Positions 1 through 21,381 of a DNA stretch of 64,000 bases are shown in pieces. This DNA is from Escherichia phage vB_Ec-G1, in the sequence record PQ433349.1. The stretch is one strand, 5' to 3'. The translations under genes and the position numbers were made by a program. The notes beneath the pieces are model-generated. The model was not told the DNA's origin, made no database searches, and was given only the letters and a program-made list of their open reading frames with translations. Positions within the stretch are counted from its first letter, which is position 1. The number at the start of each line of letters is the position of its first letter.

Positions 1-1619
1 CAACTACAATTACTAATTTACCCGAAACATCAAAAGTTAATGGTTCAGATTACCTGGTTTTAGACCAACCTGATAAGACTGTTAAAAGCACAGTTTCCAA
101 CTTTCTTGCTGACACTGGGGTGGTTTTAGCCACCCAGTTGAAAGATACAGATGGAGCAGATTTAATAGGCTCACCACATGCCGGAACTCTGGCACAAATG
201 TTGCCGTGGGTTACTCCAGAGCAATTTGGCGCTGTTGGTGACGGTGTAACAGATGATATTGCGGCTCTTGACGCCTGTATGTCATACGCGAGAGAACGCG
301 GAGTAGATATCGTATTTTCCAAAACTTATGCCATTTCCAGACCCTACGTAATATATATGGGGCTACGGAGGAACCCACGCCATATAGGTATGGGTAATAT
401 GGCAAAAATAATCATTACAACTACGGCCACATCTGGGCTTCCGGTTGATTCTTATGAGATTCCTATGGACGTTAACGCGGCTGTTATTGTAGCCGCGATC
501 ACAGGTACAGGGTATAACCAGCAACCACAGAACTTCCGCTGGGAAAACATCGACATTGATACTACTGTAAATGCAGATTACGGCATGTATACGACAAAAA
601 TGCAATCAGCATCCATACGGAACTTCAGGACTCATAATTTCAAAACAGGTATCCAAGATAACGGGTCATGGAATACTTTGTATGAAAATATAAAAATGAC
701 AAAACACAGTATTGTTGGCTTCCGTAAGACTAGGGGTACTAGCACTACTATACGTAACTGTTATGTAGAGCAATCCACCGTAGGGTATCACGTTCGCAGT
801 GGCTATTCTCAGCTTGAGGGTTGTGCTTGTGATACAAGTACAGATGTATCTTATTGGATTGAAGGCAACCCTGTAGCGTCTAGTAGTGACGATACTTTCT
901 CTATTGTATCTTGTGGCTCAGAGAACTCAGGCAAAGCTGTTATACGATTAACTGGTACAGTTACACTTAGTGTAAGAAACTTCCAAGCATTTAACTGGGC
1001 GCAGCAGCAAGACCCTATACCTGAATACTTCATGGATTTACAGTCAAATAGCGCTAGTATATCTCTTGAAGATATACGGTATTTAGGTATTAGCGCCGGA
1101 CGAATAAAAGATACTGGGGTTAGTAACAATATAACCATTCGCAACATGACTACACGTGGAAGCGATGTGCGCAGCGGCGATGTACTGCCGAATAGCACCA
1201 AGATTATTGAAATGTCGCGTTCAGGTGTTCGTGTGTCTTCCGGTTATTCCCCTGATGGGATACTTATAGATTTTGACAATCTCTTCTTCACCACAGGGTC
1301 TAGCACTCAGCCAGTAAACTACAGTCCATTATTCAATAAGCAGCGTATATACCGCACGAAGGTGACGGTAACAAGAACATCGGGAACATATGGGAGAGCA
1401 CAAGTAACTTTGCCATTCAATTTTTCTGATACAAGTTATGTAGTGCAACTTACACCCAATGTGTACCATACCGACATAGCTACACATGCTCTCGTGGCTA
1501 CTGTTGGGCCTACAGACAAGACAGTAAACAGTTTTTATGTAAATTTAGGTAGCATCAACGGCAGCAGTACGTGGACTAGTTGTCAGGTTGATGTTACCGT
1601 TTTCGGACTGACTCCATAA
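1..1619 (+). CDS. tailspike/depolymerase-like protein (pectate-lyase-like), 5-prime partial
   Basis: Reading frame of track ORF 120..1619 stays open back to window start (no stop from nt 3); FGAVGDGVTDD motif typical of pectate-lyase-fold tailspikes. Confidence 0.6.
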   Translation, partial: TTITNLPETSKVNGSDYLVLDQPDKTVKSTVSNFLADTGVVLATQLKDTDGADLIGSPHAGTLAQMLPWVTPEQFGAVGDGVTDDIAALDACMSYARERGVDIVFSKTYAISRPYVIYMGLRRNPRHIGMGNMAKIIITTTATSGLPVDSYEIPMDVNAAVIVAAITGTGYNQQPQNFRWENIDIDTTVNADYGMYTTKMQSASIRNFRTHNFKTGIQDNGSWNTLYENIKMTKHSIVGFRKTRGTSTTIRNCYVEQSTVGYHVRSGYSQLEGCACDTSTDVSYWIEGNPVASSSDDTFSIVSCGSENSGKAVIRLTGTVTLSVRNFQAFNWAQQQDPIPEYFMDLQSNSASISLEDIRYLGISAGRIKDTGVSNNITIRNMTTRGSDVRSGDVLPNSTKIIEMSRSGVRVSSGYSPDGILIDFDNLFFTTGSSTQPVNYSPLFNKQRIYRTKVTVTRTSGTYGRAQVTLPFNFSDTSYVVQLTPNVYHTDIATHALVATVGPTDKTVNSFYVNLGSINGSSTWTSCQVDVTVFGLTP

Positions 1620-1625
1620 AACTAA

Positions 1626-1643
1626 GCCCCCGAATTGGGGGGC
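1626..1643 (+). terminator. GC hairpin after tailspike gene (weak terminator)
   Basis: gcccccgaattgggggg inverted repeat right after stop; no clear T-tract. Confidence 0.35.
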
Positions 1644-1660
1644 ACAATTACGGTAATATT

Positions 1661-2104
1661 ATGAATGAATCAGGTGAACTGCTCCTAGTCAGACTGGAGA
1701 AACGATTGAAGACTCTGTTTGATAATCAGGCAATGGATAGACAGGACCGTGAGAAACTGGAGGAAACTTTGGTAGAACTACGGGATTCAATAAACGATAT
1801 AGTAAATAGACTTAACAGCGTGGAGGATATCTTAGCTAAATCTGAACCTACCATCGAAGAGTTCATCACCATTAAACATAAAGTTGCTGGTGCTGGAATT
1901 TTTGGCAAGTGGGCTTCATTAAGGTTCACACAAGATATGTCCTGCAAGCGCATGTCATCGCCATGTGATAAAATGATGAAAACATATCGTAGCAGGGTTA
2001 ATCTTGTCTTTAATTACTATCGTACTAACTCAAAGTGTTGTCACTACCACTGCAAGCCCCTCTTTGGAGGGGGCTTACTTAGAAAAACAAAGAGGTTGTT
2101 ATGA
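1661..2104 (+). CDS. hypothetical protein, coiled-coil N-terminus
   Basis: Track ORF; no clear RBS; 3-prime end runs through a hairpin, real stop may differ. Confidence 0.3.
   Translation: MNESGELLLVRLEKRLKTLFDNQAMDRQDREKLEETLVELRDSINDIVNRLNSVEDILAKSEPTIEEFITIKHKVAGAGIFGKWASLRFTQDMSCKRMSSPCDKMMKTYRSRVNLVFNYYRTNSKCCHYHCKPLFGGGLLRKTKRLL
2055..2080 (+). terminator. stem-loop
   Basis: agcccctc tttg gagggggct inverted repeat. Confidence 0.4.
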
Positions 2105-2409
2105 ATGAAATGTTCTCCCAAGGTGGTAAAGGTTCAACCGGAATCTTAACCAATAAACAAGCAGTAGCCCGTCACTTTGGAGTTAAACAATCTGAGGTTG
2201 TTTACTTCTCAGTTGGTGTGGATTTGGGTGGGTATAAGGTTGTCTATGATAAGGAGACGCAAAGGGCGTATTCCCTACCTGCTGATATTGCCTCAGGTAT
2301 TACTGCCATTAGTCTTAGTGCTGCTGTACTTGTGCATTCAGCGGGTTCTGTAGACCTTGGGGAATTAGCTGTATATCGTGATTTAAAAAGTAATGAGAAC
2401 GCACCATGA
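2101..2409 (+). CDS. hypothetical tail-module protein
   Basis: Track ORF; AAGAGG RBS upstream of ATG; start overlaps previous stop. Confidence 0.5.
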   Translation: MNEMFSQGGKGSTGILTNKQAVARHFGVKQSEVVYFSVGVDLGGYKVVYDKETQRAYSLPADIASGITAISLSAAVLVHSAGSVDLGELAVYRDLKSNENAP

Positions 2410-2648
2410 GAAAATTTTTAATAGGTATGTTTTGTACATATCCTGATAATAAAGTCAGTTCTACTAAAGTCTGGAACGCTGTAGGCATGTCGGTTATGAC
2501 AGGCATGTTTATCTTTTTAGGAATAGAAAAAGAAATTCCTGAATGGATGGGTTGGGCTTTTGTTTTCATGATAACCCCTTCTCGCCTCATGAAAAATCTT
2601 ATTGATTTACGTTGGGGCAGATCACAATCTACCAAAGAGGATGACTAA
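2406..2648 (+). CDS. small membrane protein
   Basis: Track ORF; hydrophobic segments; ATGA overlap with neighbours. Confidence 0.45.
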   Translation: MRKFLIGMFCTYPDNKVSSTKVWNAVGMSVMTGMFIFLGIEKEIPEWMGWAFVFMITPSRLMKNLIDLRWGRSQSTKEDD

Positions 2649-4135
2649 TGGACGAATATGGTTTGACAGATGCGGGATTTGTAATCCCGACTTTTGACGA
2701 TGTTCTAAACAATTATATGACAGCAGTAAAAAACACATTTGGTGCAGATGCAGCCACTTCGGAAGATACTGTGATCGGACAACTGTTTAGAATAATTGCA
2801 TACACAGATTACACATTGTGGGAAGGTATGCAAGGTGTTTATAATACTCAAACACTGGATGGTGCAGAAGGTATTTATCTTGATGAAATCTTTTCTAAAC
2901 GCGGTTTCTATCGAGCAGGGGCAGCAGCAAGTACAGGTTATGCATATGTTAAGAGTAATAACAAAGCAGCTTGGACTTATGAGCTAGGCACGGATATTTA
3001 CTTCAACTCTGATAGTGATATGAACTACTATGTTAGCACACCAACTATGTTGAATGCTAAGATTGCAGCTTATCAAATCTCTCGTGCTAATGCAACTGCT
3101 ACAGGTGTTCCAAATATTACTTTTTATGCACAAAGTGCGGTAGATGGAGGACTAAACAGTAAAACACTTGCACCTGGTTCTTCTACATTTATAACCGATC
3201 TTGAAACTTTTATCAAGGCAAATTTAACAGAAGCTGATCGTAGTCTTGTATTTTCTGATTCAGGTAACTTATCAATTGGTTTTACTTCTTTAACTAGTGA
3301 TACTCCAGTGGGACTGGTAACTCCTATTAAATTTTATGCTAGTGTTCCGGTTGGAACCAAGTGGAGTGAGATTCCGGTAGTTGCAGCAGAGAAAGGATAC
3401 AATCCTGTTGGTGTGGAGTCTATTACAGGGATATCTTCTACCTTTACAGGTTATCTTGACAGTGGTAACTTCTATTCATTTTCTCCTGGTCGAGATGTTG
3501 AGACAGACGCAGAATTCCGCTCTCGTTTCAATGACAATGTTGATGAAGCTAACGCAGGGACACGAGCAGCCATTGTGAAAGCTCTGCTACTTACAGATGG
3601 TGTTACTAAGGTGAAGATTTACGATAACCCTACGTTACATGATCAAGAACATGCTCCGGCTATGACTTTCCAGACTATAGTTTATGGAGGAAGTGCTGAA
3701 GAAGTTGCTGAAGTTATTTACAAAACTAAACCAATCAACAGTTTGACACATGGAACAACCAACATAACTGTTACAACGGAAGACGGAGGACAAGAAATTA
3801 TTCGCTTCTCCCCTGGTGCTTCTGCTATGTATTCCGTAAAACTTGTTTATCAAACTGTCAACGGAACAACTTTAAGTGGAACAGAAAAACAAAACATCGT
3901 AGAAGCTTTACAAAACCTGCAAGCTTACTTTGAGTTAGGTTCTTCAGTAACGAACGATCAAATCAAAGGTGTTATTTATGCAGCACTTGCTTTTGGACGC
4001 TTGACTTCTCTTCGTGTTTATGTTAAACTTAATACTGAGGATGACAGTAAATATACAGAGAATAATATAGTTCCTGCTTATAATGTTGTCCCTTCTTTTG
4101 ACCTTGATAACATTTCTTACGAGTATGGAGTGTAA
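2648..4135 (+). CDS. baseplate protein (Baseplate J-like)
   Basis: 495 aa; position in tail module and N-terminal resemblance to baseplate J-like wedge proteins (from memory, not searched). Confidence 0.5.
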   Translation: MDEYGLTDAGFVIPTFDDVLNNYMTAVKNTFGADAATSEDTVIGQLFRIIAYTDYTLWEGMQGVYNTQTLDGAEGIYLDEIFSKRGFYRAGAAASTGYAYVKSNNKAAWTYELGTDIYFNSDSDMNYYVSTPTMLNAKIAAYQISRANATATGVPNITFYAQSAVDGGLNSKTLAPGSSTFITDLETFIKANLTEADRSLVFSDSGNLSIGFTSLTSDTPVGLVTPIKFYASVPVGTKWSEIPVVAAEKGYNPVGVESITGISSTFTGYLDSGNFYSFSPGRDVETDAEFRSRFNDNVDEANAGTRAAIVKALLLTDGVTKVKIYDNPTLHDQEHAPAMTFQTIVYGGSAEEVAEVIYKTKPINSLTHGTTNITVTTEDGGQEIIRFSPGASAMYSVKLVYQTVNGTTLSGTEKQNIVEALQNLQAYFELGSSVTNDQIKGVIYAALAFGRLTSLRVYVKLNTEDDSKYTENNIVPAYNVVPSFDLDNISYEYGV

Positions 4136-4137
4136 AA

Positions 4138-4767
4138 ATGGCAGTGAGTGTTGACCATGTAACAACTTGGGCCAGTATCAATGAAGACGTTAAAAACCTT
4201 CTGATTGAAGATTTTAAATCTTCTCCTAACATTGTCAAGCTCCTCTACATCGTATCCAGTGAAAAGCAAAAGATAGATCAGGCAATGATCTATCTTGCTA
4301 AACACCGCTTGATCTCCACAGCCACAGGCAAATACCTAGATATCTTAGGAGAAGAAATGGGGATCGAACGTAATGGCTCTGATGATGAAGAGTATAGAAC
4401 AATATTAAAAATCAGGGCTTACCGCGTAGCCTCATCGGGGACTCGTGGTGACATAATTGATATCTTCGCCCGTTTCACAGGAACCGAGCGTGAAACGCTT
4501 AATACTTACGTAGGTTTGAATAAAACCTTTGATGTGTTTTTCTACAACCTGTGTCTTCAATCTGATCAAGCTTTAGAGCAGTTGCTAAGTGTTTTTCCTA
4601 TTATTAGCAGCTACCGTCTTGGAGCAAAAGCAGGATCAGCTTTTGGTTTTAGTTCTTATTATGCTACCAAACCGCCTCATGGTATTGGTGGTTTAGGTTC
4701 CCTGTACATGGAATCTACTGGGGATGAAACAGGACGCATGTGTACGCTTCTCAAGCAAATAGATTAA
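4138..4767 (+). CDS. baseplate/tail formation protein (P2 gpI-like, tentative)
   Basis: Track ORF directly downstream of baseplate J-like gene. Confidence 0.4.
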   Translation: MAVSVDHVTTWASINEDVKNLLIEDFKSSPNIVKLLYIVSSEKQKIDQAMIYLAKHRLISTATGKYLDILGEEMGIERNGSDDEEYRTILKIRAYRVASSGTRGDIIDIFARFTGTERETLNTYVGLNKTFDVFFYNLCLQSDQALEQLLSVFPIISSYRLGAKAGSAFGFSSYYATKPPHGIGGLGSLYMESTGDETGRMCTLLKQID

Positions 4768-17254: not shown

Positions 17255-20200
17255 CTAGTGACAGGACGCCCAGGAGTTACCCACATCATATCCGGCAGTA
17301 AGCTGAACATTAAGATTGTAAAATTCTCCAGCCTTAGTAACAGCTAAAGCAGCAAGTTCACCTGCCCGACTATAGGCTGTAAACCATCCACCTTTGGGAG
17401 ATTCATGAATGTTAGCCCAAATTTGCCCTGTCTCTTTTTCCTTATTATGCTTCCATTCTTCAACTTTAGCAAGGCATTCTTTATCAATTTTCTTTTGTTC
17501 TTCAGGATCGTCTACTTTCTTCCAACCTAATGATTCAGGTGAAAACCATTTAAATTCTACAAGGTTACGAGAAACTTCAAGCTGGGCTTCATCGTGATAT
17601 GCAATCATTTGTTGCACGAAGTCTTTATTCTTCCAGTCATCTTTAAAGAAGTCAACACTTAGCCCTTCTTCTTCGATCATGTCGTCATAAATAACCATTG
17701 CACGTTTAGCACAGATAACCCCACCACTTTGGAACAGAGAGTTAAGAATCGCGTGAGCAGAACGAGTAGGAACCTTACGACCGTCAATACCCAAAACATA
17801 CTGTTTACCAGTCTTAACCCAGAAATCGTTTAAACGTTCTTTAAGACGCGCCAGTGGGAATGCAGCTTCCCAGAAAGCATCGAACACCAACTGACCTGTA
17901 AACTTATCGCTACCAATTGTTTTAGCAACCTTGTCGGCTTGTGCACCATAAGTAATACCATACTTAACAGATTTAGCAGGACTACGTTCAAATTTACGTC
18001 CAATAGTTTCAGTGATACGTTTTGCCATCATTGTGTGAACATCATTAGGTTTCTCTAACAACAGAGCGTTACAATATTCATGTGGCTCCGGCTCGTACCG
18101 CCAACAGTTTCCTGTGATGGTAATGCAGTCTTTCTGACGCATGACCCACGTACCAAGTTCTGTTTGTGGACACCAAACATCCTCTACACCCCACTCTTCA
18201 ATAGTCAAACTTTGAACAGGAATGTGAGAGCGGTTAGCCAATGTTACCACTTTTACTTTCTGCTCTTTTGTATTGAAAGCTACAGAGATATTGCCTCCAT
18301 GCACCAGGTACGAGGCAGTTAAAGCTGCTTCAAAAAGTTCACCTGGGTTCTGCGCCCAACGCCAAACAGGTTTTTGTTTATGTTCATGCCAGTAACCATC
18401 TGCAATCAAGAAACCTTCCAAGAAAGCTACACGCTCGGCATGAGACATATTAACTACACGCTCTACCCACGGAACATCCCATTTACCTTGTTGAACAGAA
18501 GTTAAACTATTTACCTGATCTTGTTCCATGTTAAATGGAGCATTACAAATAATATTATCTCCTGTGCAAAGCTCGGCAGTTGTTCTGACTTTAGGCACAT
18601 AAGTATTCCCTTTACTACGGGTATTAACATACCAACGGTGATCTGCTGTTGCACGGTAAGTGTGTGATTTCCCTTTAATCTCAAACGTCTTACTATTTTT
18701 ATAGAAGACCTTACCTTTTACTTTAGTCCATTCTTTCAGACCTGTTTCAGCATTGTACCCTAAAATCTCATCCCCTTCCTTCAGGTCGTGATATCCTACC
18801 CAACCTTTACGAGTCAAAGCTTGAGCATCCATCGGCACACAGTAGTGTGACTCAATCTTTGCTTCCAAAGAGTCGAAGTCATAACCGATCTGGAAGTATT
18901 TAGGAACTTCTACACCAAACAAGTTACGCATCTCCCATCCAAACAAAGATGTGACACGAGGAATATTAGCTACAGATCTATGTTTCATACGAGAGGTTGC
19001 AGCATCACATGTAGCGGCTGGGGTAGGAATACGCCCATCTGCCCTTACTGCGGCTAAGAAACCTTTATCGTATTCTTGATCTTCTTCATCTTCTTCCCAA
19101 TCAGCACCGCCACCTAAAATAGAGTTCCTACGATGCTTATACGTTAAGTATTCTACAATCTGTGTAGCATAGGGAAATTTCTCACCCAAAGCTTGCAAAT
19201 TGGGACAGATTTCTTTTTCCTGACCTTTGGTAAAACATGGGTTAGTCAATACTTTAAGACCGCGACCTTTACCTTTTGCTATACGCTCTTGAATCTTCCT
19301 TTCCAAGGTTTCCGGTGTGCACTCCAGATGATCACAACGGTCCTGACAAAAATTAGAAGATAAAGTTTGCTCAACGTAAGCTCGAATACCTTTCTGAAGT
19401 TCTTCCTCACTCTTTTTAATCTTGGTGCCAGATTTAAGAGTCAAATCTTTATCTTTATATTCTGATGGTACCCAACCTAATCCTACAAGCCAGTTTTTAA
19501 TATGGGTTGTATCGTTCAATGTTGCAGGGATGTTAGGATCACACAGAGGCTCATCTGCTGCAACTGGCAGTTTCCACTCTTTCCCCAACATAACTAACCA
19601 CCAATCGCCATCCCTCTCTTCCAAATGACCATCATGTTTCTTAGCAAAATTGATCATATGGTTAGTTGGTTCTAGGTTCTTTTTAATTTGCAATTTAGGC
19701 GGAATAAAAGCTTTAAGATAACCTTTTGTTGCTGGTTTAGGTGGCAAAATAGGCTCAACGAGTAAACGAAGACGCTCCATTTCTGCATCCAAAAAAGCAA
19801 GGTTCTCTTCTGCTTGTTTCATGTTAAAAGCAAACCCACGGTGTTCCTGGCGTGTAATAATGTCTGCTACACGTTGTTCAAGTTCAAATGGACCTTCCCA
19901 TTTATCATAATCACCCCATTCTTCCATAAGGTAATTATATACGCTCGTATTGGCTTTGTTGTCATAGATACAGTAATAAAGCATATCCGCAGCAAAAGTC
20001 TTAAATCGATCTTCTTCTGGAATCTCTTTACGGAAATCTATTTTTACATCACCACCTGCTTTTCGAGAAAGTGCTGCCAAGCTATGTCCTGATTTGCCCT
20101 CAATCTTTCGATCTGGGTTTAACACTTTACTCAAAATCAAGGAGTCAATAAGTTTTACCTTATTTTTGCCCCACGTATTATATTTAACACTGTAATCTAA

Positions 20201-20587
20201 TCCATAAAACAGTTTTGTAGCCAACCAGTCGTAGTTGATACCGTTGTGAGCCACAGCCATTTCAACCAGATATTCAGGCTTGTCTTTAAAATAACCTTCA
20301 TGATTAATAAAATCTGGGAAATCTTTTAGTTGAAAATGCGTGTAATCTTGCGCCACATACTCTTTAAGAACATATGTGTATTTACCATCTGACTCTTCAT
20401 AAGGACGCCCATCAAAGATGTATTTAGGGCCATCGTGGAAAGCTACTATTTCTCCTGTTTCATGGTTCTCTAAGACAATACAGTGCATTTGAAATGTGTC
20501 TTTGAGACGATAAGGACTAGCTAAATAATCAATAGTGTCATTATTCAACAATCCGTTTGCTTCAATATCCCATGTAAACTTACTCAC
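17255..20587 (-). CDS. DNA polymerase A (Pol I family) interrupted by an intein
   Basis: Motif A-like DFDSLEAKIESHY, motif B-like KSVKYGITYGA, motif C YHDE; about 245-aa insert after motif A. Confidence 0.85.
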   Translation of the reverse strand: MSKFTWDIEANGLLNNDTIDYLASPYRLKDTFQMHCIVLENHETGEIVAFHDGPKYIFDGRPYEESDGKYTYVLKEYVAQDYTHFQLKDFPDFINHEGYFKDKPEYLVEMAVAHNGINYDWLATKLFYGLDYSVKYNTWGKNKVKLIDSLILSKVLNPDRKIEGKSGHSLAALSRKAGGDVKIDFRKEIPEEDRFKTFAADMLYYCIYDNKANTSVYNYLMEEWGDYDKWEGPFELEQRVADIITRQEHRGFAFNMKQAEENLAFLDAEMERLRLLVEPILPPKPATKGYLKAFIPPKLQIKKNLEPTNHMINFAKKHDGHLEERDGDWWLVMLGKEWKLPVAADEPLCDPNIPATLNDTTHIKNWLVGLGWVPSEYKDKDLTLKSGTKIKKSEEELQKGIRAYVEQTLSSNFCQDRCDHLECTPETLERKIQERIAKGKGRGLKVLTNPCFTKGQEKEICPNLQALGEKFPYATQIVEYLTYKHRRNSILGGGADWEEDEEDQEYDKGFLAAVRADGRIPTPAATCDAATSRMKHRSVANIPRVTSLFGWEMRNLFGVEVPKYFQIGYDFDSLEAKIESHYCVPMDAQALTRKGWVGYHDLKEGDEILGYNAETGLKEWTKVKGKVFYKNSKTFEIKGKSHTYRATADHRWYVNTRSKGNTYVPKVRTTAELCTGDNIICNAPFNMEQDQVNSLTSVQQGKWDVPWVERVVNMSHAERVAFLEGFLIADGYWHEHKQKPVWRWAQNPGELFEAALTASYLVHGGNISVAFNTKEQKVKVVTLANRSHIPVQSLTIEEWGVEDVWCPQTELGTWVMRQKDCITITGNCWRYEPEPHEYCNALLLEKPNDVHTMMAKRITETIGRKFERSPAKSVKYGITYGAQADKVAKTIGSDKFTGQLVFDAFWEAAFPLARLKERLNDFWVKTGKQYVLGIDGRKVPTRSAHAILNSLFQSGGVICAKRAMVIYDDMIEEEGLSVDFFKDDWKNKDFVQQMIAYHDEAQLEVSRNLVEFKWFSPESLGWKKVDDPEEQKKIDKECLAKVEEWKHNKEKETGQIWANIHESPKGGWFTAYSRAGELAALAVTKAGEFYNLNVQLTAGYDVGNSWASCH
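18107..18841 (-). mobile_element. intein with LAGLIDADG homing-endonuclease domain inside PolA
   Basis: Insert begins with Cys (CVPMDAQ), contains VAFLEGFLIADGY, ends ...ITGN followed by Cys; junction codons checked against nucleotides. Confidence 0.6.
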
Positions 20588-21381
20588 TATTCCTCCTTTC
20601 TAATGTTCTCCAGAACCCACTGAAGTTCTTTTAAACTTAAACTTCTTACTCCCGCAGTTTTACTAGCTTCAGCTTTAAGTAACGGGTAAGCCTCAATGAT
20701 ACGCGTTTTAAGATCAGAAGTCAAGGCTTTTAAAAAATAGGTAGATGCTTCAGATAAAGAATCTTCTTCTGATAACACTTTACCTGCACTTGCTCCCGCT
20801 CTCCTAACGGCTATATCGTAGTCTTTACTGTTACCTAATACGAATAGTCGATTCTCTCCTAAAACAACGGGAGAACGCTTCTCGTTGCGTTTAATCCATA
20901 TCTGGAATACACAAGGAACATCCCAAGGTTCTCCATGAAGAATAAAAGATCCTTTTGGACATTCTTCTTCGTAAAGAAGATGCATGTGGGGATTTAGTTT
21001 GTGTGCAAAAAAGATTTTTTGAAATGTGCGAGGCAAGATAAAACAAATACCACCTTCGTTATCCAACATTTCAGCACAATGGTTAAAGAACTTAATGGCA
21101 AGACTAGCATTTTTTCCAAACGGAGGATTACCGACAAAAGCAGTTACACTACCAACAGACTCAACAGATTGAGCTAAAAAATCTGCCTCAATACAATCTT
21201 CAAACTTAGGGTCAATATCAAAAGAAGTTATGTTTTTAAAACAAGAAGAGAAAGCTCCTTCTCCCGCAGATGGTTCTACGTAGTTAGCTTCCTCTCCAAA
21301 AATTTCTTTGATCTTATCACATAAGAACCCCGCATAAGCGGGGTTAGTGTAATATTGATCAAGTGTGTTCAACTTGCTCAA
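20587..21381 (-). CDS. DNA N6-adenine methyltransferase (gamma-class amino-MTase)
   Basis: SAM motif VEPSAGEGAF and catalytic NPPF (VGNPPFGK). Confidence 0.75.
   Translation of the reverse strand: MSKLNTLDQYYTNPAYAGFLCDKIKEIFGEEANYVEPSAGEGAFSSCFKNITSFDIDPKFEDCIEADFLAQSVESVGSVTAFVGNPPFGKNASLAIKFFNHCAEMLDNEGGICFILPRTFQKIFFAHKLNPHMHLLYEEECPKGSFILHGEPWDVPCVFQIWIKRNEKRSPVVLGENRLFVLGNSKDYDIAVRRAGASAGKVLSEEDSLSEASTYFLKALTSDLKTRIIEAYPLLKAEASKTAGVRSLSLKELQWVLENIRKEE

Follow-up and report, generated by a model that had tools for sequence, protein, structure and literature searches.

In the 64,000-nt stretch of the Escherichia phage vB_Ec-G1 genome (record PQ433349.1) that was analyzed here, and that we call the window, the minus strand carries a gene for a family A DNA polymerase interrupted in frame by 245 additional codons. 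This insert is very probably a mobile intein, residing in the only family A replicative DNA polymerase of the phage. The source phage is a Phapecoctavirus, an ESCO5/phAPEC8-like coliphage, with a host polymerase 99.3-99.8% identical to those of ESCO5, anhysbys, ZCKP1 and other Phapecoctavirus members (subfamily Stephanstirmvirinae) and ~83% identical to the polymerases of phi92-like Justusliebigvirus phages. Motif A (DxxxxE) and motif B (RxxxKxxxYG..YG) occur in T7-like order, as expected of a family A DNA polymerase, and the gene is the single polymerase gene of viable lytic phages carrying the intein. The locus is organized as follows, with the gene itself taken from the list of open reading frames (ORFs).

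17255..20587, minus strand: precursor gene of the intein-interrupted family A DNA polymerase; GTG start, 1110 codons plus stop
18842..20587, minus strand: N-extein, precursor residues 1-582, ending in motif A, G568-Y-D570-F-D-S-L-E575...ESHY582 (alignment with phAPEC8)
18107..18841, minus strand: intein, 245 residues (Cys1...Thr243-Gly244-Asn245), precursor residues 583-827; exactly the segment missing from phAPEC8
18839..18841, minus strand: codon TGT of Cys1 (residue 583), the standard class 1 N-terminal nucleophile; 'aca' on the plus strand
18107-18109, minus strand: codon AAC of Asn245 (residue 827); 'gtt' on the plus strand
18104..18106, minus strand: codon TGT of Cys+1 (residue 828), first C-extein residue and transesterification nucleophile; read on the DNA
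17255..18106, minus strand: C-extein, residues 828-1110 plus stop; includes motif B (O-helix), RSPAKSVKYGITYGA, and a Pfam DNA_pol_A stretch at residues 845-1009

An earlier note, made from the DNA letters and the translated ORFs, had assigned the insert to residues 583-827 of a 1110-residue PolA, and re-reading the ORF returned the same coordinates and numbering. The insert begins with CVPMDAQ and finishes with ITGN/C (a slash marks the junction here and below), so that Cys at position 1, Asn at the C-terminus and Cys at +1—the junction residues of an intein, and those the note had named—could each be read again from their codons. Its placement of the insert directly after motif A also stands: the sequence just before the insert, DFDSLEAKIESHY, aligns with motif A of T7 DNA polymerase, GIDASGLELRCLAHF. 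We propose that the gene would be translated to a 1110-aa precursor containing a 245-aa HINT domain, and that the intein would then excise itself and join Tyr582 to Cys828, yielding the polymerase of 865 aa for which sister phages without the intein have an uninterrupted gene. That such splicing takes place is suggested by the sequence, the predicted fold and the viability of the phages.

Intein-less alleles and the restored polymerase

The polymerase of phage phAPEC8 (JX561091) comprises 865 residues and is devoid of exactly these 245 residues (...KIESHY/CWRYEPEP...). Over the exteins, the window and phAPEC8 differ at 43 of 2598 nt (~1.7%), with a junction reading ...CACTAC/TGTTGG...; the empty site of phAPEC8 is AAATTGAATCACACTAC/TGTTGGCGGTACGAGCC, and the TGT codon of the +1 residue is found in this intein-less allele, too. 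A 300-nt probe across the empty site identified the uninterrupted site in 81 phage records, phAPEC8 among them, and the intein itself is present at an identity of at least 90% in 34 records. Phapecoctavirus and Justusliebigvirus each include alleles with and without the intein. The same holds for a single species, Justusliebigvirus VEcB, in which NC_052663 is intein-minus and OZ035773 intein-plus; we rejected the idea that these two records represent one isolate with and without the intein, since their exteins differ at 27 of 2580 nt. The pair belongs to different isolates of one species and therefore illustrates a polymorphism rather than an observed homing event. Also rejected was the reading of a 'putative DNA polymerase, part I' in phage outra as a split gene—the gene is full-length and the name was transferred.

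Removing the insert in silico yields a protein with one Pfam DNA_pol_A stretch (residues 504-764, 51 bits), and the unspliced precursor gives two such stretches with a score of 43.8 bits. The spliced protein matches T7 DNA polymerase (gp5) with an E-value of 6e-20 and without a gap at the junction, where ...GIDASGLELRCLAHF-MARFD... of T7 lies opposite ...GYDFDSLEAKIESHY-CWRYE... of the window. In this alignment, D570 stands opposite the Asp of the T7 GIDASGLELR motif, and motif B of T7 gp5, RDNAKTFIYGFLYGA, stands opposite RSPAKSVKYGITYGA of the window, which places the insertion point 13 residues past the motif A Asp (D570), ahead of the O-helix and between palm and fingers. The insert is thus a removable in-frame insertion, as expected of an intein, both by the phAPEC8 allele and by the gap-free alignment with T7 gp5. 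The comparison with intein-less PolA homologs that the earlier note had put forward as a check came out in its favor, with excision restoring an uninterrupted region from motif A to the O-helix.

Fold and family of the insert

An AlphaFold2 model of the intein, computed from an alignment of 52 family members, had a predicted local distance difference test (pLDDT) score of 95.4 and a predicted template modeling (pTM) score of 0.92, and consists of a HINT fold with one LAGLIDADG domain. In a Foldseek search of the PDB, the top match was the TliVMA intein (E 2.8e-8, template modeling (TM) score 0.70), followed by PI-SceI, PhoVMA and PI-PfuI; mini-inteins of all classes, hedgehog domains and bacterial intein-like (BIL) domains ranked lower. 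All 36 PDB matches at E <= 0.001 were inteins or related HINT domains (hedgehog autoprocessing, bacterial intein-like), such that the HINT fold expected of an intein was found by structure prediction and structure search alike. The family profile, compared against the PDB, retrieved the Spl DnaX mini-intein (1e-6) and the AceL NrdHF intein (5.7e-5), as well as NrdJ-1 and gp41-1.

The family to which the insert belongs is large. The initial homolog search returned 9 proteins, and an exhaustive HMMER search of representatives (clusters built at 50% identity) returned 2,220 clusters at E <= 0.001 and 78 at E <= 1e-30. Most matches span all 245 residues, in 228-263 aa, and the clusters lie mostly in phage polymerase genes.

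Curated profiles performed differently. The insert scored 16.3 bits with Pfam Intein_splicing (cut-off 35.8 bits, E 0.009) and 12.9 bits with Pfam LAGLIDADG_3 (cut-off 22.5 bits), both below threshold, and a search of the insert against NCBIfam gave no match. A phmmer search of the PDB with the intein or a mini-intein version of it gave weak matches, in which the N-lobe was aligned to the C-lobe of the Mtu RecA mini-intein and class 3 structures were not aligned. That curated intein models stay below threshold would suit a domain that is never excised and belongs permanently to the polymerase, much as T7 gp5 has its thioredoxin-binding loop, and that merely looks like an intein. We consider such a domain extremely improbable, however, since every splice-junction residue is present and invariant, the fold is that of a HINT domain, and the segment is precisely missing from near-identical phages (the 43 extein differences given above). 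Moreover, the same module recurs at numerous sites with no relation to each other and in proteins as different as portal, terminase, tape measure and helicase, and the T7 alignment leads us to expect that 245 extra residues between motif A and the O-helix would disrupt the active site.

Catalytic residues and splicing class

To describe the catalytic center, we numbered residues by intein block and counted their conservation over 120 inteins, i.e., the window intein and 119 others cut from the clusters built at 50% identity. The blocks concerned, and the counts, are:

18632..18649, minus strand: Block B, T65-A-D-H68-R-W70 (Thr B:7, His B:10, Trp B:12), assigned by family conservation
18107..18181, minus strand: Blocks F and G, D221-V-W-C224-P-Q-T...W-V-M-R-Q...I-T243-G244-N245; Cys224 codon at 18170-18172

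A:1, Cys1: 120/120
B:7, Thr65: 120/120
B:10, His68: 120/120
B:12, Trp70: 119/120
F:4, Cys224: 120/120
G:5, Thr243: 120/120
G:6, Gly244: 119/120
G:7, Asn245: 120/120
+1, Cys in the window: Ser 53, Cys 38 and Thr 29 in the family

Judged by these residues, the predicted catalytic center is a hybrid of class 1 residues and the class 3 WCT triplet, with a Gly-Asn end. On the class 1 side, Cys1 is present together with Thr65 and His68, the Thr-x-x-His of Block B, while F:4 is Cys rather than Asp. The His that usually assists Asn cyclization is missing both at G:6, which is Gly244, and around F:13 (G230, T231, W232). A penultimate His is known to be dispensable for splicing. The earlier note was right about the Gly at this position, but its description of a His replaced by Gly does not fit a family in which Gly is the rule; with penultimate Gly in 119 of 120 members, Gly244 is no defect. 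On the class 3 side, W70, C224 and T243 make up the WCT triplet (Trp B:12, Cys F:4, Thr G:5) that defines class 3 inteins (PMC2807308), whereas the absence of a nucleophile at position 1, also typical of that class, is not seen in any of the 120 members.

The register of the triplet was assessed against the class 3 prototype, the MP-Be intein of Bethlehem gp11, which we rebuilt from AY500153, and not from the phmmer alignments with PDB entries. The rebuilt intein has 341 aa with Pro1, Ser62, His65, Trp67, Cys320, Phe330, Thr339, His340, Asn341 and Thr+1, all matching the published numbering (PMC2807308). A hidden Markov model (HMM) of the family aligned its Trp B:12 column with Trp67 of MP-Be; Cys F:4 precedes the terminal Asn by 21 residues in the window intein, in MP-Be (C320-N341) and in the RDF intein of Bethlehem (C296-N317); and Thr occupies Asn-2 in both the window intein and MP-Be. 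The overall match of the family HMM with MP-Be had an E-value of 0.13 at a search space (Z) of 1e6, with only the N-lobe aligned. Hoffmann et al. listed 1,701 class 3 inteins, defined by an absent N-terminal Cys; the window family keeps this residue and therefore falls outside their census. Tori et al. knew of no more than three inteins that combine WCT with Ser1 or Cys1, and they did not decide how these splice (PMC2807308).

Our best guess is that Cys1 would form the first thioester, as in the Bethlehem RDF intein, which has been treated as class 1, with Cys224 standing in for the Asp that inteins normally have at F:4. Initiation by Cys224 in the manner of class 3 is almost equally likely; we lean towards Cys1 because it is invariant, because Thr B:7 is invariant as well, and because the family has no specific sequence affinity to class 3. 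In the class 3 route, Cys224 would attack the N-terminal junction of the same intein and form a branched intermediate at block F, from which the N-extein would pass to Cys+1; Cys1 would then be chemically dispensable or serve another role, e.g., in a redox-sensitive disulfide. This route, which we regard as plausible if somewhat doubtful, draws on the full WCT triplet in the register of MP-Be (with the published numbering reproduced), on the conservation of the triplet in 119-120 of 120 members, and on the missing His at F:13 and G:6, a feature shared with the class 3 AceL NrdHF intein. Additionally, class 3 structures are among the Foldseek matches, with TM scores of ~0.71-0.74 normalized to target. 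On the other hand, Cys1 and Thr B:7 are both invariant, and Thr B:7 is dispensable in MP-Be (PMC2807308); the profile search of the PDB ranks class 1 inteins first and did not find Msm and Mch DnaB1; and the affinity of the family HMM for MP-Be is low. The treatment of the related Bethlehem RDF intein as class 1 and a literature report in which WCT grafted on a class 1 intein gave no class 3 splicing point the same way.

A single LAGLIDADG domain

Nested in the splicing domain is the putative homing endonuclease, with the following features:

18227..18484, minus strand: single LAGLIDADG domain, ~intein residues 120-205, helix-strand-strand-helix-strand-strand (models and Foldseek)
18395..18427, minus strand: LAGLIDADG motif AFLEGFLIADG, residues 139-149; candidate catalytic Asp148 at 18398-18400
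18350..18352, minus strand: Gln164, invariant in family alignments; aligns with the Gln of 'ITQK' in I-DmoI

The single LAGLIDADG-type motif claimed earlier was found at intein residues 139-149 when the codons were read anew, and the assignment as an intein with a LAGLIDADG homing-endonuclease domain is retained with one refinement: the endonuclease part amounts to one LAGLIDADG half-domain. The motif ends in the expected acidic residue and Gly, with D/E at position 148 in 117/120 and Gly149 in 118/120 members, and a profile alignment sets Asp148-Gly149 on the GDG of I-DmoI and Gln164 on ITQK. In the model, helices at residues 134-148 and 168-180 and strands at 149-152, 159-164, 185-190 and 196-201 form the alpha-beta-beta-alpha-beta-beta(-alpha) core typical of the LAGLIDADG fold; modeled alone, the domain reached a pLDDT of 88. 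The best Foldseek match of the isolated domain in the PDB was I-CeuI (E 0.013, probability 1.0). Further LAGLIDADG matches comprised I-HjeMI, PI-SceI, I-OnuI, I-DmoI, the bI3 maturase and WhiA; designed proteins of no relation ranked among them, and no E-value was <= 0.001.

In I-CreI-type enzymes, one LAGLIDADG domain provides half an active site. Activity would thus need a dimer of two inteins, and the endonuclease probably acts as a homodimer. Such a homodimer of two intein molecules would cut intein-less polymerase alleles during co-infection, and repair would then copy the intein into the cut allele, i.e., homing.

The intein might instead be splicing-competent but carry a dead endonuclease remnant, half of an ancestral two-domain enzyme. 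Persistence would then rest on vertical descent and general recombination only, with the middle domain kept because its deletion would perturb the HINT fold. A second LAGLIDADG-like motif, GRFLGWLLSDGYY, in a 324-aa relative from phage nepoznato (MN850571, locus 1105-4674) speaks for such a history. This intein belongs to the same family (33% identity) and contains the motif in an extra segment, the single domain of the window aligning with its second motif. The family also comprises mini-inteins of 138-163 aa and forms of ~310-360 aa, all ending TGN; the mini-inteins imply that loss occurs, and the larger forms were taken as two-domain proteins, unconfirmed by a motif scan. The lack of palindromic symmetry at the target site (see below) and the inheritance of the intein over saturated synonymous divergence, exemplified by the Klebsiella phage discussed next, fit a remnant as well. 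Nevertheless, we judge a dead endonuclease unlikely, though credible, since the single-domain form is the norm in the 119 clusters, D/E-Gly is kept in 117-118 of 120 members, and Gln164 is invariant. Evolutionary rates and distribution, described in the following, argue in the same direction.

Evolution and distribution

We compared the window with the copy in phage PaulScherrer (Justusliebigvirus) by means of synonymous divergence (dS) and the ratio of nonsynonymous to synonymous divergence (omega).

Whole intein: dS 0.48, omega 0.022
LAGLIDADG domain: dS 0.32, omega 0.04
C-extein: dS 1.3, omega 0.073
N-extein: dS 3.0, omega 0.056

These ratios indicate that the intein is under strong purifying selection over its whole length; the omega of 0.04 in the LAGLIDADG domain is not what a dead remnant would lead one to expect. 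The low dS of the intein implies a more recent common ancestor than that of the host genes and thus points to lateral transfer between genera. Klebsiella phage KP13-16 has the intein at the same position; compared with the window copy, its synonymous sites are saturated (proportion of synonymous differences, pS, 0.80), but only 23 of 245 residues differ, which marks the element as old and constrained.

Family members occupy at least six positions in family A polymerases, in addition to a primase-helicase, an SU10-type portal and proteins of unknown function. Members with Cys1, WCT and T[G/S]N were also found in actinophages, in a tape measure protein (Mcklovin), a terminase (GordTnk2) and a portal (Lahirium), the latter annotated 'contains intein'. 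This multi-site, laterally exchanged pattern is more in keeping with active homing than with a dead element. Invasion of at least six polymerase sites and other genes, patchy presence among phages with polymerase genes differing by only 1-2%, and an intein dS 3-6 times below the extein dS between genera would all be awkward for the remnant.

Several findings weigh against a mobile intein with an active endonuclease, beginning with the sub-threshold Pfam scores, the empty NCBIfam search and the missing His at G:6 and F:13 reported above. The chain holds one LAGLIDADG domain only, and the model gives this domain short beta-hairpins, with strands of 4-6 residues. The best pseudo-palindrome at the empty site reached 6/11, a chance level that lends no support to a symmetric target, although the target may still be symmetric. 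Finally, co-infecting phages may simply have recombined, which would explain the low dS of the intein without endonuclease-driven homing. We nonetheless retain the mobile intein as the preferred account of the insert.

Further observations on relatives and neighboring genes

The 324-aa intein of nepoznato was also observed in the Phapecoctavirus phages nieznany, ukendt, AV126 and phiWec187. It sits ~50 residues downstream, inside motif B (SVKYG/C...TLTGN/CTYGAQ). At the insertion site of the window intein, these phages have Thr, not Cys, at +1 and diverged flanks (HY/TWRYDNPDHAY), and this site may be a homing-resistant allele. A protein from a 1.8-kb contig, P0001 (193 aa), is a 77%-identical fragment of the window intein that ends prematurely past the LAGLIDADG domain; its N-terminal 35 residues read as frameshifted, MDAQALTRRGRGQDIMTSKKVMRSVGYNADTGLKEW. 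Either the copy is decaying or the assembly is at fault. The metagenomic proteins P0029 and P0041 contain two family inteins each, ~20 residues apart, within one host protein of unknown function for which only weak N-terminal matches to helix-turn-helix (HTH) domains were obtained.

Upstream of the polymerase lies an N6-adenine methyltransferase gene, and downstream, past a stretch with three small ORFs in the phAPEC8 annotation, a tRNA nucleotidyltransferase-like gene. At 20585-20589, base 20587 is common to the GTG start of the polymerase and the stop of the methyltransferase ORF (20587..21381, minus strand). This one-base overlap, which suggests translational coupling, is also annotated in phAPEC8. 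In the intein-less VEcB record (NC_052663), an 'endonuclease' is annotated upstream and an 'HNH endonuclease' downstream of the polymerase (locus positions 437-832 and 3530-4126), and the replication module may host several kinds of homing elements. Neither tRNA genes nor a second intein of the same family were found in the window.

Four records labeled as Campylobacter jejuni phages—MG065645, MG065650, MG065656 and MG065689, 'Campylobacter phage' A145, B15, C3 and A110a—match the E. coli Phapecoctavirus polymerase almost exactly (for B15, 99.9% protein identity to the window exteins). Their genomes are ~146-151 kb, similar to those of E. coli Phapecoctavirus, and the Campylobacter host label looks doubtful.

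Novelty and implications

A LAGLIDADG intein in this polymerase is a correct finding that is already known at the level of annotation; what may be new is the mix of catalytic residues from two classes and the nuclease with its single domain. A broader proposition is that the window intein represents a very large, mostly phage-borne and undescribed family that combines Cys1, WCT, a Gly-Asn end and a single-domain LAGLIDADG enzyme that would have to dimerize, and we regard it as quite unlikely to hold in full. No paper describing this intein family was found in a search that left key older literature outside its reach. For intein-borne single-motif LAGLIDADG enzymes, the literature search found nothing relevant, an absence that is not proof of novelty. 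According to a 2024 paper, inteins had not been reported in coliphages (PMC11162368).

For the phage itself, this would be nothing out of the ordinary: the replication gene is essential, the element within it is selfish, and the polymerase works only if splicing occurs. On the practical side, the intein should be marked when therapeutic Phapecoctavirus and Justusliebigvirus genomes are annotated; in most of the records listed for this group, the gene name gives no hint of it. Tori and Perler reportedly proposed a phage progenitor of class 3 inteins. If the broader proposition is true, the family could be a surviving form of this progenitor, with Cys1 kept and Cys F:4 already in place, and might splice with either or both cysteines, e.g., through a redox-gated Cys1-Cys224 pair; its nuclease would be the first intein-borne homodimeric LAGLIDADG enzyme. 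As Cys1 and Cys F:4 are both invariant, the family offers a natural test of the initiating cysteine and of class 3 origin, and, without an assisting His at G:6 or F:13, a test of unaided Asn cyclization. At 245 aa with a single LAGLIDADG domain, the element is a compact intein-plus-nuclease unit that could serve as an engineering scaffold.

Comparison with known systems

The closest known counterpart is the intein of Escherichia phage PaulScherrer (Bas60, BASEL collection; MZ501100), annotated as a mat_peptide 'intein' in the DNA polymerase. It occupies the same site with 735 nt and the same boundaries as the window element and shares 97.6% protein identity with it, although its host polymerase is only ~83% identical and the phage belongs to the genus Justusliebigvirus. 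Because MZ501100 carries an intein with the same 735-nt boundaries, the element is real and was already annotated in a sister phage. The BASEL paper identified such inteins by comparative genomics (PMC8594841). Moreover, the polymerase of phage SD2 (PQ821640) is annotated 'intein-containing DNA polymerase precursor'. In the records listed for the near-identical group, such as those of ESCO5, anhysbys and ZCKP1, the gene is entered as 'DNA polymerase I' or 'hypothetical protein'.

With PI-SceI, TliVMA and PI-PfuI, its best structural matches (TM 0.52-0.70 normalized to query), the window intein shares a HINT domain with an inserted LAGLIDADG part, but these proteins (target lengths) have 360-540 aa against 245 aa with one LAGLIDADG domain. 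They carry two LAGLIDADG motifs as a one-chain pseudo-dimer, Asp at F:4 and a penultimate His. As for the nuclease, the I-CeuI/I-CreI type is alike in that each chain has a single LAGLIDADG helix and a single alpha-beta-beta-alpha-beta-beta core. These enzymes are free-standing and intron-encoded (I-CeuI, 207 aa), homodimeric, and equipped with long DNA-binding hairpins, whereas the window domain is ~85-105 aa long, lies inside an intein and has short hairpins, with dimerization as a prediction.

The class 3 inteins, represented by the Bethlehem 'DnaB' intein (gp11), are likewise phage-borne and have WCT in the same register. Most of them also carry LAGLIDADG domains. Their lack of an N-terminal nucleophile (Pro1 in MP-Be) and their Thr-His-Asn end set them apart from the window intein with its Cys1 and Gly-Asn end. 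The split class 3 intein AceL NrdHF (6zgq), from an Antarctic lake metagenome, shows the absence of His at F:13 and G:6 together with fast splicing, and it matches in structure (TM 0.74 normalized to target) and profile (5.7e-5, as given above). Yet it is split, lacks an N-terminal nucleophile and an endonuclease domain, and has MCT instead of WCT.

The RDF intein of Bethlehem (gp51, its coding sequence annotated gp52 in AY500153) has 317 aa and was recovered by the family HMM with an E-value of 1.7e-10 in a search space of one million sequences. Its residues Cys1, Thr65, His68, Val70, Cys296, Thr315, Gly316, Asn317 and Ser+1 resemble the window intein in Cys1, TxxH, the Cys at F:4 located 21 residues before Asn, and the Thr-Gly-Asn end, and it also contains a LAGLIDADG endonuclease. 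It differs by Val rather than Trp at B:12, by its length and larger endonuclease region, by Ser+1 and by its metallophosphoesterase host. Kelley et al. (2016), who treated this intein as class 1, showed that it splices completely, that a G316H mutant needs >5 h to reach 50% splicing—making Gly the faster-splicing residue—and that the endonuclease is toxic in E. coli (PMC5050341). The Bethlehem RDF intein provides the best evidence available that inteins with Cys1, Cys F:4 and a Thr-Gly-Asn end splice well.

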